Positions 50,324 to 54,353 of a stretch of 64,000 nt of DNA are shown here, piece after piece. A program made the position numbers and the translations under genes. The notes beneath the pieces are model-generated. The model made no database searches. It was not told the DNA's origin and saw only the letters and a program-made list of their open reading frames with translations. The stretch is from Escherichia coli phage NG_S8, in sequence record LC788711.1; one strand, 5' to 3'. Every line of letters starts with the position of its first letter. Position 1 is the stretch's first letter.

Positions 50324-52105
50324 TTAGGTTAGGCGTTGAACTGTTACACGTAGTCTTGGCAAGAAAACAGCTGCCGCTTCTGCAGCGTGAATGATAACAC
50401 CCAACTCAACGTTGCCATTACCAAGGTTTTTAATAGTATAAATATATCCGTTCCTACGGAAAGCAAACTCATCAGGCCTACTAGCCCAAGTTTGTGTATA
50501 ACTATAGGAAGTTGTACTGTGATAAGGTACTAGATATCCAGGTGGCAGAGTAAGAATCTGGTGGAATACACCATCACCAGCTGTATAACTTTGTTGACGT
50601 CTACCCTGTACCTGCCAAGCGCTACCGCCGTAAGTACGCACAGGCATTCCAGCAGTATTAAGATTACCCATAATAACTTCAGTAGTTAATATAACAGTAG
50701 AGTGAGCATTTGGTAATCCCAACCAAACTGTGGCCAAAGGTGTGTAGAAGTCACCAGCACCAGGGTAGGATGGAGTTATATCGTCCCCTACATAAGTACT
50801 TGCAACGTTGCCTGGGAATAACCTGAGGGGTACAGTACTAGGACTCCACACAGGTCCATGTTCATTACCAATGGAGTTGGTATTAGTATCTACATACCAT
50901 TGTTTACCTACACCAAATTTATATAAGCTAATTTGAGAAGCTGCACCACCATAGTTAACAGGAGACCACAACCCGCCATTACTAGAGCCGATAAATTCAC
51001 ATCGTGCAGTATTATCACCAAAAACTCCGGTATACGCAGCGTTATTACCAACATACTCCATATCAGGGCGATAGCCTAAGTTTCCGAAAGCATTCTGGTT
51101 AATGAATTTATATCCTGTATTTGGTAAACTAACACCTTTAATAGTAAAGTTAGATGGAGATATTAGGATATCTGAACCGGTAAATGGATTACCAGAAACT
51201 CCCATACTACCATTAGAATAGCGCAGATTTAGCACATACCAAATAACCTTAGTTGGCGTAACGTTATACCAGTCCTGTACATATACCTTTCTAGCAGACT
51301 GAGCAGCCATATTAGAAGTAGAACCTCTACAAACATATATTTTTTCTGGGTATGCAGGAGATTGGTAAAGAACGTTTACGTTATCTGGTAGTACGCCTTT
51401 TTTACCTGCGAAGCCACGAATATTAGAACTACAAACATAAAACCAATCATGGCCTCTACCAGCAGAACCAATAGGCGCCTGCCAGTTAGGTTCCCAATAA
51501 TCTGCGTTACCACCATCTAAAGGAACAGTAGAGACACCAGTTGGAAAACCCATAAGACTCCAGGCTCTGGAAATAGCTTCACCTGCGGAAACACCACCAG
51601 GTCTAAAGATCTGGAAACCGGAAGATTGTAGCAAAGTACCGCCAGTTCCTTGTCTAGCAATAGATTCCTCATGACCTAGGCTACCATTATAAATATAGGT
51701 ACCATGAGCTAAACTATCACCGATTGCAAAGGCAGATGTTATTGCCAATTCAGCACCAGCACGTGGTTGGTCTTCAAAGAATGTTAAAAACTGGCCAACC
51801 TGAGATTGTGTACCATTAAGGAAACCCCTATGAGTACCGTTTATCTCAATAGCAGTTAGTATAACTCTACCAGGATCATTGGATTTAATATTTATAATAT
51901 CCCAAGGCATTTGACATACAAAATACCCATTGCCTGCATCACCTAGAGCGGCCTCGTAAGTCCCATCAACTAGGACAAATGGCATATCTGAGTGGAAGAT
52001 ACTATTAGTATTTGGAGAGTAGTGCTGATTTATATCACCACCATTAGCAGCGTTTAGAGATAATACAGTTTTACCATCACTAAATTTTCCTGCGAAAAAA
52101 CTCAT
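50324..52105 (-). CDS. receptor-binding tail protein (pb5-like, 593 aa)
   Basis: Position beside divergent lipoprotein gene as in T5 oad/llp; Gly/Asn/Tyr-rich beta-type composition; RBS AAGGAG. Confidence 0.65.
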
Positions 52106-52130
52106 ACAATCTCCTTCTTTAAAAATGTAT

Positions 52131-52159
52131 TTGCTTAGATCCCTCTATTTTGCTATAAT
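52131..52159 (+). promoter_or_regulatory. promoter of lipoprotein (llp-like) gene
   Basis: -35 TTGCTT 52131-52136, 17-bp spacer, -10 TATAAT 52154-52159. Confidence 0.6.
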
Positions 52160-52188
52160 ATATTTATAAATTAAACAGAGGAACGATT

Positions 52189-52455
52189 ATGAAAAAGTTA
52201 CTAGCCATCGTAGTTGCAGCAGTAGTGTTGACGGGTTGTGTGCCAGCTCCCGAGCCATTTTGTAAGGCATATGTGAAGTCTTATGGTCATGTTGGTGAAG
52301 AACACTATGCTTTAGATATTCGAGAAGCACGTACTGTGGGCTACCGATTCCCTAAAACTCAGTTACGCACTAAGTTTGGGTGGTGGGATTTGTCACAGTT
52401 TGATCTCAAATATGGCGATTGCAAATTTAAACTAGAACGATCTGGTCACTTGTAA
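52189..52455 (+). CDS. llp: lipoprotein, Llp-like receptor-blocking candidate (88 aa)
   Basis: Signal peptide MKKLLAIVVAAVVLTGC with lipobox LTGC; own extended -10 promoter; divergent from receptor-binding gene. Confidence 0.75.
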   Translation: MKKLLAIVVAAVVLTGCVPAPEPFCKAYVKSYGHVGEEHYALDIREARTVGYRFPKTQLRTKFGWWDLSQFDLKYGDCKFKLERSGHL

Positions 52456-52784
52456 TTAGTATAAAGTAAAAAGATCTCGAAGTAAACAAAAATTTTTATT
52501 TCTGGGATGAGGTACAGGTAGCAAACACAATGCAAGATGAAGAAAAGTCCTTTCAGGAACCTGTTAACTTTGATATAAATCCCAGGAATAAAAAGCAATA
52601 CATGATGCAATTGATGAAATCATTCAAGACGTCATAGAAGATACAATAGAAGACGTGATGGGAACATCCTTCTTACTAGAAGAATCCGGCTTCGATGAAG
52701 TAATGGATCTTATCGGGACAGTCATAATGGTTCGTGCAATTGCTAGGATATTCCAAATACCAGGACTACAGGAGAAGCAAAGAG

Positions 52785-52919
52785 ATGTCAGACGACAACA
52801 GAAGAAAGAACAGGCGCGGGGAAGTGTACGAAAGTTGGATAAATAGTTTCGGATTCGGGACTGTATTATTCTTTATCTTTGTACTCTTTTGGTTAGCGGC
52901 TATGGCGGGGTGGTTATAA
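52785..52919 (+). CDS. small membrane protein (44 aa), C-terminal TM
   Basis: ATG after AGGAG; hydrophobic C-terminus FGFGTVLFFIFVLFWLAAMAGWL. Confidence 0.4.
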   Translation: MSDDNRRKNRRGEVYESWINSFGFGTVLFFIFVLFWLAAMAGWL

Positions 52920-53024
52920 TGGAAGTAGTAATTATTGCTTTACTAGTTGTGGTAATTATCGGGCAGTGCATCTTAGACAACCACTTAGCTCGTATCGAAC
53001 GTAAGCTGCGGGGAGACAAATAAT
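52920..53024 (+). CDS. small membrane protein (34 aa), N-terminal TM
   Basis: TAATG coupling to previous ORF; EVVIIALLVVVIIG hydrophobic segment. Confidence 0.4.
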
Positions 53025-53217
53025 GGATTGGTTAGGACTTATTACACTTGTAGTATGGCTTGTCTGGATTGTTGGATATATGACTTCACATCGTAACCGT
53101 ATACAGCGGCTAGAGGATAAAGTCACCCAGCTTAATATTAATATGGATAAGTTACTGGACTCCCAACGTAATGATCGGGCACGTATTCACCAACTTGAGA
53201 GGGAATTAGATGTTTAG
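53023..53217 (+). CDS. small membrane protein (64 aa), N-terminal TM plus charged helical tail
   Basis: TAATG coupling; LGLITLVVWLVWIVGY hydrophobic segment then heptad-like charged region. Confidence 0.5.
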   Translation: MDWLGLITLVVWLVWIVGYMTSHRNRIQRLEDKVTQLNINMDKLLDSQRNDRARIHQLERELDV

Positions 53218-53455
53218 CTTTGTAGCTATCTTCATTATCGGGGTGCTTGCGGGAATCTTCGGAACACTCGGGGCTATTAACAAGCATCGTGAATACGTTG
53301 CGGGAGTATCGCGGGAGCTTTCGGAAAGGGAGCGGAAGTTTGCGGAGAAACGTGCGGAGTTTGAGCGAGAGTGGTCGGATGGATCTCGGGCGTCGCAGAG
53401 GAGGTTTCGTATGTCAGAATCAGGAGACAAGCCAGTAGACCGGTGTTCTTCCTAA
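53210..53455 (+). CDS. small membrane protein (81 aa), N-terminal TM plus Arg/Glu-rich tail
   Basis: Overlapping start; FSFVAIFIIGVLAGIFGTLGAI hydrophobic segment. Confidence 0.5.
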   Translation: MFSFVAIFIIGVLAGIFGTLGAINKHREYVAGVSRELSERERKFAEKRAEFEREWSDGSRASQRRFRMSESGDKPVDRCSS

Positions 53456-53567
53456 GTTAGCGCTAATTACCAATTCTCGAAATTTCATAAGATTACACAT
53501 GAAGGTGTGCCCAGAGGTTCCCTAGATGAGAATGAGTCTCATTACCGCCCCGGTACTTAGCAAGCTA

Positions 53568-53614
53568 ATAGTCACACTATGTTATCATCACATAGTGTGA
53601 CTATTTTATTTTTA
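53568..53614 (+). terminator. rho-independent terminator closing the llp / small-membrane-protein unit
   Basis: Perfect 14-bp stem ATAGTCACACTATG/CATAGTGTGACTAT then TTTTATTTTTAA. Confidence 0.7.
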
Positions 53615-53618
53615 ATTG

Positions 53619-54353
53619 TTATGCAACTTTTAATTTATCAATGAATTGTTGCGGGCTGCAACTATATTCCGCGCGTTCTTCCTCGGTCATACCTTCCCAA
53701 CACATTTTTAAACGTTCGGCTAGGAATTGATAATCGTTATCATCATCAAGCGATTCATCAATAAAGGTTTCACCGATCAATGTTACGCCGATTGATAGGA
53801 TATCGTTAACGGCTTGAGCGTCCAGCGTTTTAAATCCAGCACTTGCCGCCGCTGATAATACACCTTTATGATCATCAATCATCATAAAATCAGCGTTAGG
53901 ATATAGCTGTTTAAACAGTTCAAAGTAATAAGACTTATATACAGCGTCTTTGCTGTGATATATTTCGCTAACCTTATCCGCTTCAAAGTATTTGTGCAGT
54001 GTATCGCGGGAAAATACGCGGATATTACTATTTCCGCGCCCTCGCAGCCCTTGTTTGCGTAAATAAAAGTAATCGCTTTTAGACATAAGGCGAGCGGTAC
54101 AAATAATGTTTAAAGTATTTGCATCATTCATACACTGGCGCATATATTCAACCAACGGCAATAAAGAATCCTGCATAATTAAATCATGTTTACAGGCTCC
54201 GCGTGAATACTTATTTAAATTTAAATTCCCGTTATCATCAAAGCAAGGCGCTACACGGTGGAAAGAATTAATGATAGTTCCGTCTAAGTCCCAAATCATA
54301 ACGCGGGAAATATGCGGGAAAGCGCGGGCAATATTCAAGGTTACTTGATTCAT
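53619..54353 (-). CDS. HAD-superfamily phosphatase (dmp-like 5'-deoxyribonucleotidase candidate, 244 aa)
   Basis: N-terminal MIWDLDGTIINSF (HAD motif I DxDGT); size matches T5 dmp. Confidence 0.6.
   Translation of the reverse strand: MNQVTLNIARAFPHISRVMIWDLDGTIINSFHRVAPCFDDNGNLNLNKYSRGACKHDLIMQDSLLPLVEYMRQCMNDANTLNIICTARLMSKSDYFYLRKQGLRGRGNSNIRVFSRDTLHKYFEADKVSEIYHSKDAVYKSYYFELFKQLYPNADFMMIDDHKGVLSAAASAGFKTLDAQAVNDILSIGVTLIGETFIDESLDDDNDYQFLAERLKMCWEGMTEEERAEYSCSPQQFIDKLKVA

Follow-up and report, generated by a model that had tools for sequence, protein, structure and literature searches.

Inner-membrane superinfection-exclusion proteins are known from other phages, namely Imm of T4, which has two transmembrane (TM) segments, SieA of P22, and gp15 of HK97. 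In bacteria, small membrane proteins such as MgrB and AcrZ act by inserting beside inner-membrane proteins, which they inhibit or hijack. In T5-like phages, the lipoprotein Llp has an established receptor-blocking role and solved structures (PMC9586334). The llp gene is followed by four small genes, T5.159–T5.162 in T5 (NC_005859) and Orf1–4 in BF23 (DQ097178), which have been carried in annotation as single-TM hypothetical proteins since 2005–2006, the T5 entries for T5.159-T5.162 reading 'contains single transmembrane domain'. Full-text literature searches with T5.159-162, T5p155-158, or the PHROG identifiers retrieved no publication, and HIDEN-SEQ holds no essentiality data for T5-like phages.

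The window, i.e., the whole 64,000-nucleotide stretch of Escherichia coli phage NG_S8 (LC788711.1) that was analyzed, belongs to a T5-like Epseptimavirus, with 99.4–99.9% identity to Salmonella phages 1-29 and BSP22A. A sequence-only reading of it had pointed to a coupled cluster of at least four small open reading frames (ORFs), of 44, 34, 64, and 81 aa, downstream of llp, and their sizes and positions are as it claimed. These ORFs, hereafter o44, o34, o64, and o81, are orthologues of T5.159–T5.162 and BF23 Orf1–4, and belong to this cassette of the Markadamsvirinae. The cassette is an ordinary feature, already known as the annotated T5.159–T5.162 genes, an identity that the sequence-only reading had missed, and because these have been annotated in T5 since 2005, current understanding is unchanged. 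The features of the locus are as follows.

52131..52159, + strand: llp promoter, read from the sequence (-35 TTGCTT at 52131-52136, 17-nt spacer, TG-extended -10 TGcTATAAT at 52151-52159)
52189..52455, + strand: llp, with which the unit begins, encoding the receptor-blocking lipoprotein (Cor-type, 88 aa)
52456..52529, + strand: llp-cassette spacer, conserved together with BtuB-type llp
52530..52846, + strand: accessory gene of 104 aa (PHROG 16810), frame-shifted and apparently decaying, in two fragments (a, 52530-52637; b, 52655/52658-52846)
52785..52919, + strand: o44, T5.159 orthologue, 44 aa, PHROG 8596 (E = 2e-28)
52919..53023, + strand: o34, T5.160 orthologue, 34 aa, PHROG 6369 (E = 1e-23)
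53023..53217, + strand: o64, T5.161 orthologue, 64 aa, PHROG 5851 (E = 6e-36)
53210..53455, + strand: o81, T5.162 orthologue, 81 aa, PHROG 6447 'membrane protein' (E = 1e-46)
53474..53508, strand not given: conserved motif adjoining, on its left side, the boundary of the right terminal repeat (repeat from about 53509)
53567..53615, + strand: intrinsic terminator of the llp-cassette transcript (16-bp perfect stem, 7-nt loop, U-tract; hairpin 53567-53605)
53619..54353, - strand: dmp (deoxynucleoside-5'-monophosphatase), oriented towards the cassette and the first of the terminal-repeat genes

The cassette ORFs are genuine genes under purifying selection. The PHROG matches of all four proteins span their full length, and tblastn also matches T5 and BF23. 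Median dN/dS values range from 0.12 to 0.33 over the cassette (o44 0.12, o34 0.12, o64 0.33, and o81 0.29), in comparisons where pS is 0.36-0.53, and a third-codon-position excess is found for o44, o34, o64, and o81 (p = 0.002, 0.01, 0.08, and 0.001, respectively). Chance would not produce such a pattern. Both other sense frames carry stops in every orthologue, while the ORFs are open in 21-24 of the 24 loci compared. A Shine–Dalgarno (SD)-like motif precedes each of the four ORFs; for o44, this is AGGAG, 10 nt upstream. The sequence-only reading had named a lack of conservation, of ribosome-binding sites, and of synonymous bias as grounds for giving up its genes; the ORFs are conserved, preceded by SD-like motifs, and evolve at a dN/dS of 0.12-0.33. 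Several GenBank and RefSeq records leave o44 and/or o34 unannotated, and such omissions, or mislabelled neighboring genes, are found in many records.

Chaining by TAATG/ATGA overlaps had also been proposed. TAATG is found at the first two junctions of the window, but ATGA is absent here, the third junction (o64/o81) being an 8-nt overlap, ATGTTTAG. ATGA occurs at the o34/o64 junction of BF23-type relatives. Over 29 loci, stop/start overlaps of 1, 4, 8, or 13 nt are present at 82 of 82 junctions and are kept even after gene loss or gain, which bears out translational coupling of the ORFs. Some of the conservation at the C-termini of o44, o34, and o64 may stem from the SD and start of the next gene embedded there, rather than from protein function.

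All four proteins share a simple architecture, with one strongly hydrophobic 19-residue segment each (Kyte-Doolittle (KD) maximum 1.9-2.8) and a K/R-rich flank, in keeping with the single-pass, charged-tail description given earlier. In o44, a basic N-terminal region of 21 aa precedes a C-terminal TM helix (KD 2.33 at residues 22-40), so that the protein would be tail-anchored, with a predicted N-in orientation. The other three begin with the TM helix, which is followed by basic helices of 15 (o34), 42 (o64), and about 48 residues (o81), with a heptad pattern that is clear in o34 and o64 and weak in o81. For o34 (KD 2.83, 15-aa basic heptad tail), the predicted orientation is N-out/C-in. The TM helix of o64 is continuous with its 42-aa heptad helix of the coiled-coil type, with 82% hydrophobic residues at the a/d positions versus 13% elsewhere, and AlphaFold models the protein as a single helix from residue 3 to 63 (pLDDT 92). 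That of o81 runs into a long charged helix (AlphaFold helix 2-71, pLDDT 72), the last ~14 aa being variable and disordered. As the o64 and o81 models are single helices, fold matches to them are meaningless. Topology was assigned by the positive-inside rule alone, which predicts a cytoplasmic location for the o34, o64, and o81 helices and for the basic N-terminus of o44.

In the sequences compared, the cassette is nearly universal in Tequintavirus and Epseptimavirus, and absent elsewhere. The o81 gene is found in 439 phage records, versus 443 that carry a closely related dmp (at least 80% identity). An exhaustive HMM search with the o81 profile against 1.84 billion representatives gave 5 hits, all from the same family, and word-indexed homology searches with o64, o81, and o44 returned no relatives beyond this lineage. 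The IMG/VR search with o64 yielded two T5-like contigs only, so the relatives used here are drawn from the annotated phage collection. Gene order is kept in the window and in annotated relatives, with the cassette lying between llp and the right terminal repeat/dmp. Only o44 is universal (29/29 loci); o64 is precisely deleted in 6/29 loci, one locus lacks o34, and SP3 and SelmaRatti have internal truncations of o81, which makes an obligate four-part complex unlikely. An additional 51-aa gene in HK6 and IME178 is an o34 paralogue (hhalign probability 95.7%); paralogy between o34 and o64 is merely suggestive (49%), and profile comparison among the cassette proteins relates neither o44 nor o81 to other members. 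Whether a phage is of the FhuA or the BtuB type makes no difference to the cassette, which does not co-vary with receptor or Llp type and is, therefore, not a receptor-specific partner of Llp.

The two ORF fragments upstream of o44 had been placed in three different frames. The fragments are real, but they occupy two frames, o44 sharing that of fragment a. The suspected frame break at an A5 run near 52592 lies exactly at 52590-52594, where alignment with relatives, which have A3, reveals a +2 nt expansion from A3 to A5. The corresponding 104-aa ORF is intact in Bas26, EscoHU1, and RN29, its intact alleles have a pN/pS of 0.20, and its 3' end overlaps o44 by 62 nt. The idea of a decayed larger gene holds up well: judging from the alignments, the fragments are what is left of a 104-aa gene, now decaying, that a +2 insertion in an A-run has interrupted. 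T5-type and BF23-type phages have lost the gene independently of each other, through different deletions, with remnants still present in T5 and BF23, and its loss is, thus, tolerated.

Frameshifting had been offered as the alternative to decay. Programmed -1 frameshifting on T_AAA_AAG (52589-52595) would make the fragments one gene with a 105-aa product. Indeed, AAA AAG, the slippery lysine pair known from dnaX, arises through the +2 insertion, which also puts fragment b exactly in the -1 frame. The A5 allele is also common, with 88 records versus 103 for the intact allele, and both halves are otherwise intact in the window and in phages 1-29, BSP22A, 1-23, beppo, and bux. Nevertheless, while the A-site pair is ideal, the first base of the P-site is mismatched relative to X_XXY_YYZ, the 70 nt downstream fold no better than shuffles (z = -0.19), and no SD-like element is found 10-14 nt upstream, AGGA being only 2 nt upstream. 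In IrmaTschudi and saus132, the A5 insertion is accompanied by a second lesion, a 1-nt deletion about 80 nt downstream, which would break the shifted frame, and the independent losses in T5-type and BF23-type phages also argue against a frameshifted product. Since some A5 carriers have a second frame-breaking lesion, and no stimulatory structure accompanies the site, frameshifting is rejected as the main reading and considered highly improbable.

The first gene of the unit, llp, is identified by a PHROG 1119 match (E = 1e-23) and a lipoprotein signal; its product is 67% identical to BF23 Llp, and its dN/dS, used as the control for the cassette values, is 0.14. Its promoter agrees in position with the -35 and -10 signals given for this gene in the BF23 record (DQ097178) and with the T5 promoter upstream of llp; it falls below the promoter-scan threshold, because the -35 box matches only 3/6. 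Scanning the sequence between llp and the cassette predicted no + strand promoter and no credible terminator, and in the T5 RefSeq and BF23 records, promoters are annotated upstream of llp only. The scan also returned a weak terminator-like site within o44 (52843-52864) and, in the llp-cassette spacer, a promoter-like site on the minus strand; both were dismissed as chance, as scan sites are no more numerous than in shuffles.

At the other end, the strong terminator that the sequence-only reading had placed at 53568-53614 is a real hairpin, with a dG of -21.5 kcal/mol, a z-score of -5.7 versus shuffles, and 6/11 stem pairs that covary among relatives. The right terminal repeat begins about 58 nt before it, and the cassette and dmp converge on it from either side; in T5, the corresponding position is occupied by a hairpin whose sequence differs. 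The repeat boundary was mapped from the annotations of EscoHU1, T5, BF23, and DT571/2, and the motif at 53474..53508 is conserved across genera and in Klebsiella phage vB_Kpn_3. An Rfam search of 52100-53700 gave no significant match.

Published transcript data are available for the related phage Bas33, in which orthology was assigned from gene sizes and order. At 20 min, RNA-seq values were 219/127 TPM for llp, 162/137 for the o34 paralogue, 462/408 for o64, and 22/13 for o81 (PMC13250531 Dataset S1; reads under ENA PRJEB101990). The llp and cassette genes are, thus, at similar transcript levels at this time, with o81 about 20-fold below o64. All of these transcripts were about 0 when daunorubicin blocked infection early (PMC13250531 Dataset S1). 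Transcription of the cassette follows the second step of DNA transfer. The claim that the cassette shares the llp promoter stands indirectly, through the lack of predicted intervening promoters and terminators, the position of the T5 promoters, and the Bas33 levels, from which we infer that this part of the T5-like genome makes up the promoter-distal end of the llp transcription unit. In the CRISPRi-ART knock-down screen, T5.159-162 and llp are all 'Not Fit', and the T5 endolysin likewise (PMC11879866 supplement). The cassette is, therefore, dispensable for T5 on laboratory E. coli, and given the endolysin result, this screen cannot exclude lysis roles.

Considering these data together, the four products are very probably real, co-expressed small inner-membrane proteins. 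Searches against Pfam, PHROG families with a function, NCBIfam, and PADLOC, together with the o81 HMM search, matched none of them to a known exclusion, holin, lysis, defense, or anti-defense family; among the genes of the unit, llp alone matches Cor (PHROG 1119). Sub-threshold matches of the Pfam/NCBIfam/PADLOC type (PspB, CcmD, LapA, MotB_plug, and DUF7365) were set aside as reflecting composition, not homology. We lean slightly towards the cassette proteins working together as an accessory envelope-acting complex. Strict stop/start coupling would deliver the four proteins together, and their TM and heptad helices, judging from the coupling and the helix pattern, could assemble them into a small hetero-oligomeric inner-membrane complex, acting alongside Llp as an accessory envelope-modifying factor. 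Its preferred role would be that of an inner-membrane arm of lytic conversion, which might hinder the entry of DNA or colicins into the infected cell, or stabilize the membrane after injection. The exclusion mechanism itself is rather doubtful, and among the functions suggested by the sequence-only reading (superinfection exclusion, lysis inhibition, and membrane depolarization), the data give preference to none. The boldest version, in which the four proteins are the missing inner-membrane arm of T5 lytic conversion, forming a new lineage-restricted exclusion or membrane-resealing device on the cytoplasmic face, independent of the outer-membrane receptor, is quite unlikely; if true, such a device might act by shutting the injection channel or by keeping out the DNA of competing phages or colicins.

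Other explanations place the cassette outside such a complex. It is possible, albeit on the unlikely side, that the proteins are host-takeover or anti-defense modulators, each separately inhibiting or hijacking a protein of the host inner membrane; examples would be ExbBD/TolQR as stator-type motors, FtsH, the Psp system, and abortive-infection effectors anchored in the membrane. Members are gained, lost, and duplicated independently, as would be expected of separate modules more than of an obligate complex, and T5 can do without the cassette on a defense-poor laboratory strain. Weak similarities point the same way, between o64 and PspB (16.7 bits versus a cutoff of 25.6; NCBIfam 15.8) and between o44 and the MotB N-terminal region (13.7 versus 24), but all these profile matches are below curated thresholds and typical of TM plus coiled-coil composition. 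PADLOC gives no hit, and the strict translational coupling seen at every junction also speaks against this reading.

A set of lysis-timing factors, i.e., holin, antiholin, or spanin-like proteins for envelope disruption or lysis inhibition, is very unlikely. Small single-TM proteins with charged tails do resemble holins and antiholins, a TM helix with a coiled coil beside an outer-membrane lipoprotein superficially recalls an i-spanin/o-spanin pair, and the 'Not Fit' score of the endolysin leaves room for such a role. Nevertheless, the T5 holin T5.041 and endolysin T5.040 are located at 19.9-21.0 kb, in a separate cassette about 90 kb away, and the Young lab reported that the T5-type lysis cassette already includes spanins for both the inner and the outer membrane (PMC4342426); on these grounds, the spanin reading was rejected. 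Moreover, Llp is an established receptor blocker (PMC9586334), the soluble parts (15-58 residues, predicted cytoplasmic) are too short for an i-spanin, and PHROG and Pfam give no holin or spanin family match for the four proteins. As for chance or non-functional frames in a non-coding stretch before the terminal repeat, the points in favor are the very small size of the ORFs (34-81 aa), the omission of o44 and/or o34 from several records, and the lack of a phenotype on knock-down. This reading is, however, already refuted by the comparative data, namely the dN/dS of 0.12-0.33, the third-position excess, the conserved SD motifs and overlaps, and the closed alternative frames; with transcripts detected and a nearly universal presence in about 440 genomes, its probability is practically negligible. 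The favored reading remains that of accessory proteins working together at the inner membrane, co-expressed with Llp.

Few orphan genes of the T5-like phages, which are widely used in Salmonella and E. coli biocontrol, are as conserved as those of the cassette (~440 sequenced genomes, purifying selection). The role of coupled membrane proteins of 34-81 aa beside a receptor-blocking gene could show how these phages alter the inner membrane of the cells that they infect, and functional knowledge of the cassette would also improve the annotation of T5-like records.

Compared with known systems, the cassette proteins are similar to Imm, SieA, and gp15 in being small, non-essential phage inner-membrane proteins, encoded beside or expressed with other exclusion functions, but they show no sequence or profile similarity to them, differ in TM number and topology, and are encoded by four coupled genes, not one. 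PspB (PF06667/PRK09458) resembles o64 in size (about 70 aa) and in its N-terminal TM segment followed by a cytoplasmic heptad helix, and o64 aligns over nearly the whole profile. However, it scores 16.7 and 15.8 bits against cut-offs of 25.6 and 90, no PspC-like partner is present, and the similarity is compatible with composition alone. As in two-component spanins of the lambda Rz/Rz1 type, an outer-membrane lipoprotein gene adjoins a gene for an N-terminal TM segment with a coiled coil, but here, the lipoprotein is a receptor blocker (PMC9586334), the coiled coil is just 42 aa long and predicted to be cytoplasmic, and the T5-type spanins sit in the lysis cassette (PMC4342426). The closest counterparts are the T5 and BF23 loci themselves. 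Amino-acid identity of the T5 proteins to those of the window is 78% (o44), 77% (o34), 41% (o64), and 62% (o81). In the window, llp and o44 are separated by the frame-shifted 104-aa gene, of which T5 and BF23 have remnants only; the o81 C-terminal tail is the MSESGDKPVDRCSS variant in the window and EFRPKYGVDDHSMR in T5, and the o34/o64 junction is TAATG in the window and ATGA in BF23. The three loci are otherwise alike in their four genes, their order, their location from llp to the right terminal repeat, their overlapping junctions, and their single-TM architecture.

The four small ORFs downstream of llp, the receptor-blocking lipoprotein gene, are named here by their length in amino acids (o44, o34, o64 and o81) and are together called the cassette. 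Over 52100-53700, the window shares 99.4% identity with Salmonella phage 1-29, and over 52456-53520 its identity to BSP22A (Epseptimavirus, Markadamsvirinae, Demerecviridae) is 99.9%; 382-447 phage records match the llp-cassette region. The features are arranged as follows:

50324-52105, minus strand, receptor-binding protein gene, followed by a divergent promoter
52131-52159, plus strand, llp promoter (TTGCTT, 17 nt, TGcTATAAT; TG-extended -10), upstream of llp
52189-52455, plus strand, llp, followed by a 74-nt spacer
52530-52637 and 52655-52846, plus strand, two ORF fragments between the spacer and o44
52785-52919, plus strand, o44
52919-53023, plus strand, o34
53023-53217, plus strand, o64
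53210-53455, plus strand, o81
53567-53605, plus strand, hairpin terminator 3' of o81
53619-54353, minus strand, dmp (deoxynucleoside-5'-monophosphatase gene), convergent with the cassette

The right terminal repeat begins at about 53509, as mapped from the repeat annotations of EscoHU1, T5, BF23 and DT571/2. Within the unique region, therefore, the cassette is the final coding DNA; its terminator is in the repeat, about 58 nt from the start. Directly left of the repeat start, Tequintavirus and Epseptimavirus both keep a ~35-nt motif, CTCGAAATTTCATAAGATTACACATGAAGGTGTG (window 53474-53520; T5 locus L004 3998-4045); Klebsiella phage vB_Kpn_3 matches 47 nt at this place at 100% identity and leaves the rest of the query unmatched. 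The motif may act as a signal for end formation or for the terminase.

All four ORFs are present at the lengths given by the sequence-only reading, each with one strongly hydrophobic segment (the Kyte-Doolittle maxima over 19 residues are 2.33, 2.83, 1.94 and 2.48) and K/R-rich sequence beside it. Of the TAATG and ATGA junctions that it described, TAATG is found at two (o44/o34 and o34/o64), whereas ATGA is seen in BF23-type relatives and not in the window, where o64 and o81 share an 8-nt overlap, ATGTTTAG. SD-like motifs lie 6-10 nt 5' of every start (AGGAG, GGGGTGG, GGGGAG and GAGAGGGA). Across 24-29 loci of both genera, with nucleotide identity down to ~72%, median pairwise NG86 dN/dS is 0.12 for o44, 0.12 for o34, 0.33 for o64 and 0.29 for o81 (pooled pS 0.36-0.53), compared with 0.14 for the characterised gene llp. 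Third codon positions are enriched among variable columns (p = 0.002, 0.01, 0.08 and 0.001, in the same order), both other sense frames hold stops in every orthologue, and stop and start overlap by 1, 4, 8 or 13 nt at 82 of 82 junctions (29 loci). The overlap persists where o64 (six loci) or o34 (one locus) has been lost, or where a 51-aa o34 paralogue has been gained. The o64 deletion, in 6/29 loci (L012, L013, L021, L025, L026, L028), is precise and leaves a clean TAATG joining o34 to o81; in L015 it is o34, not o64, that is missing. The 51-aa gene, found between o44 and o34 in HK6 and IME178 (L018 1178-1333; L022 1106-1261) and, judged by gene size, in Bas33, is paralogous to o34 (hhalign probability 95.7%), from which an inserted heptad segment sets it apart. 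Unconserved ORFs devoid of coding signal had been named as grounds for rejection; conservation, SD-like motifs and dN/dS of 0.12-0.33 were found, and the pattern is well beyond chance. Together with the Bas33 transcripts described below, the dN/dS values, third-position bias, closed alternative frames and 82/82 junctions refute a chance-ORF reading.

The llp promoter coincides in position with the signals annotated for BF23 llp and with a promoter annotated in T5. Because it precedes llp, the stretch from llp to o81 has no predicted plus-strand promoter and no convincing predicted terminator, and a hairpin follows o81, the cassette is likely co-transcribed with llp. The strong terminator proposed for the end of the unit is borne out by a 16-bp hairpin with a U-tract (dG -21.5 kcal/mol, z = -5.7), whose structure is kept in two differing sequence types with compensatory changes at 6/11 pairs. 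These types, AATAGTCAC... and AACTGTTTCAC..., are unrelated in sequence (window 53567-53605 and the aligned site, 15 loci), and their distribution differs from the division into genera, a pattern that suggests recombination where the terminal repeat begins. Just after the llp stop, ~55 nt (52456-52510) are conserved in Epseptimavirus and BtuB-type Tequintavirus, and FhuA-type phages (T5, EC104, HK6) have a different sequence here; the spacer thus travels with the llp/receptor-binding-protein module.

In public RNA-seq of Bas33 (Tequintavirus) at 20 min post-infection, TPM in two untreated replicates was 219/127 for llp, 162/137 for the o34 paralogue, 462/408 for the o64 orthologue and 22/13 for the o81 orthologue, with orthologues assigned by gene size and order; llp and cassette TPM was ~0 when daunorubicin stopped infection early (PMC13250531 Dataset S1). 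The near-zero counts of the 129-nt and 108-nt Bas33 genes are technical, since other genes that do not reach the 150-nt read length, cydX among them, are also at ~0. Throughout this table, genes below ~130 nt are almost without reads (bas33_0189, 0191, 0009 and E. coli cydX; the Bas33 genes considered here are bas33_0187-0192), a deficit that resembles an artefact of read mapping. The o81 orthologue stands ~20-fold below both its upstream and downstream neighbours (PMC13250531 Dataset S1). In T5, transcriptome-wide CRISPRi-ART knock-down scored T5.159-T5.162 and llp all as 'Not Fit' (PMC11879866 supplementary data). Its authors caution that sensitivity is lower outside the pre-early region, and the T5 endolysin is likewise 'Not Fit' (PMC11879866), so that the screen shows only dispensability of these genes on a laboratory strain.

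The two fragments upstream of o44 had been attributed either to a decayed larger gene or to frameshifting, and it is decay that the relatives support. In Bas26, EscoHU1, RN29 and others, both fragments form one 104-aa ORF (PHROG 16810), with pN/pS of 0.20 outside its 62-nt overlap with o44. The window reads GGAATAAAAAGC in place of GGACT--AAAGC, that is, A3 to A5 at 52590-52594 plus a C-to-A change, and the frame breaks at this A-run. The A5 allele occurs in 88 records, against 103 with the intact allele, and as these come from many laboratories, sequencing error is ruled out. A dnaX-type frameshift was tested because the insertion yields AAA AAG and places the downstream fragment in the -1 frame; the allele is also common. 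Nevertheless, the 70 nt 3' of the slip site fold no better than shuffles (z = -0.19), no SD-like element lies near it at stimulatory distance, and IrmaTschudi and saus132 combine the same insertion with a 1-nt deletion ~80 nt downstream that would disrupt the shifted frame. Of this gene, T5-type and BF23-type phages have just remnants, left by different deletions, and HK6 has a 92-aa version. Even low-level frameshifting in the window allele is thus very improbable. Beppo shows an intermediate state, ACT AAA AAG. The 104-aa gene is best read as a dispensable accessory gene under progressive, repeated decay. Its remnant in T5 contains a promoter-like match (L004 3263-3291; TG-extended -10), 35-60 nt before T5.159, that is possibly an internal promoter; no equivalent is predicted in the window.

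In o34, o64 and o81, the TM helix stands at the start, preceded by 0-4 residues without positive charge (residue 2 is often acidic) and followed by K/R-rich sequence, for which the positive-inside rule predicts an N-out/C-in topology. With its basic 21-residue N-terminus and C-terminal TM helix, o44 is predicted to be tail-anchored and N-in. AlphaFold models o64 as a single helix (3-63, pLDDT 92) and o81 as a single helix (2-71, pLDDT 72) followed by a disordered tail. Heptads repeat cleanly through the soluble part of o64, where 82% of a/d positions are hydrophobic versus 13% elsewhere; the pattern is short-scale in o34 and weaker in o81. The invariant C-termini (AAMAGW-L/I, RKLRGDK, ERELDV) partly coincide with the following gene's SD and start codon, so nucleotide-level constraint may account for that share of the invariance.

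The findings fit a set of small inner-membrane proteins that are made together and turn basic helices towards the cytoplasm, with a clear heptad pattern on those of o34 and o64. They may form a small hetero-oligomer that works beside Llp as an accessory envelope factor, a reading that we favour and hold slightly more probable than not. Inner-membrane-level exclusion or post-injection membrane stabilisation as its specific role is, at best, a tentative suggestion. That the proteins act separately, each against a membrane protein or defence system of the host, is rather unlikely, although the independent gain and loss of cassette members gives this alternative real weight. A lysis role is more doubtful still: the T5 holin and endolysin lie ~90 kb from the cassette, and spanins are already encoded in the lysis cassette of T5-type phages (PMC4342426).

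By tblastn, o81 is found in 439 phage records and dmp in 908, 443 of them at least 80% identical to the window copy. Klebsiella phages, which belong to the more distant carriers of dmp, have it in 81 records and o81 in only 3, and among the matches listed, Vibrio, Proteus and Aeromonas phages appear for dmp and not for o81. Word-indexed searches of 5.8 billion proteins returned no relatives beyond the T5-like lineage, and an exhaustive HMM search of 1.84 billion representatives with the o81 profile gave 5 hits, all in its own family. By these searches, the cassette genes are lineage-restricted orphans, nearly universal in Tequintavirus and Epseptimavirus. No Pfam, NCBIfam or PADLOC family scores above threshold; weak profile hits (PspB 16.7 bits, CcmD-like 19.5, MotB_plug 13.7, LapA) were dismissed as the typical output of a TM helix plus coiled coil. 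In many relatives, HNH homing-endonuclease genes of two types lie directly 3' of o81 and overlap its stop (L010 1600-2097, L011 1580-2077, L023 1551-2048, L008 1758-2255; L013 1610-2083, L019 1639-2112, and L026 1697-2050, which ends with the locus). One type swaps the final ~14 aa of o81 for ...IDGKS, and in SP3 and SelmaRatti this type comes with internal o81 deletions; the window has no such insertion.

Public annotation of the cassette is uneven (L001 NC_048811, L007 KY787212, L024, L027): o44 is unannotated in NC_048811, beppo and bux, both o44 and o34 in BSP22A, and neighbouring ORFs are called 'tail fiber', 'tail assembly protein' or 'lysozyme' in some records. The proteins fall in PHROGs 8596, 6369, 5851 and 6447; PHROG 6447 bears the label 'membrane protein'. 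The structural part of the sequence-only reading stands, and its functional part is a hypothesis. The cassette is already annotated in the type phage: T5 RefSeq has T5.159 (42 aa), T5.160 (35 aa), T5.161 (64 aa) and T5.162 (81 aa) at the equivalent place, each noted as 'contains single transmembrane domain', and the BF23 counterparts are Orf1-Orf4. It is, thus, an ordinary set of hypothetical genes and not a new feature; the interest lies in what near-universal orphan membrane proteins of T5-like phages do. Between T5 (FhuA-type) and BF23 (BtuB-type), the Llp proteins are unrelated (24% identity in global alignment), whereas o44 is 100%, o34 97%, o64 83% and o81 88% identical; judged by these identities, the cassette follows the phage backbone and not the receptor module.
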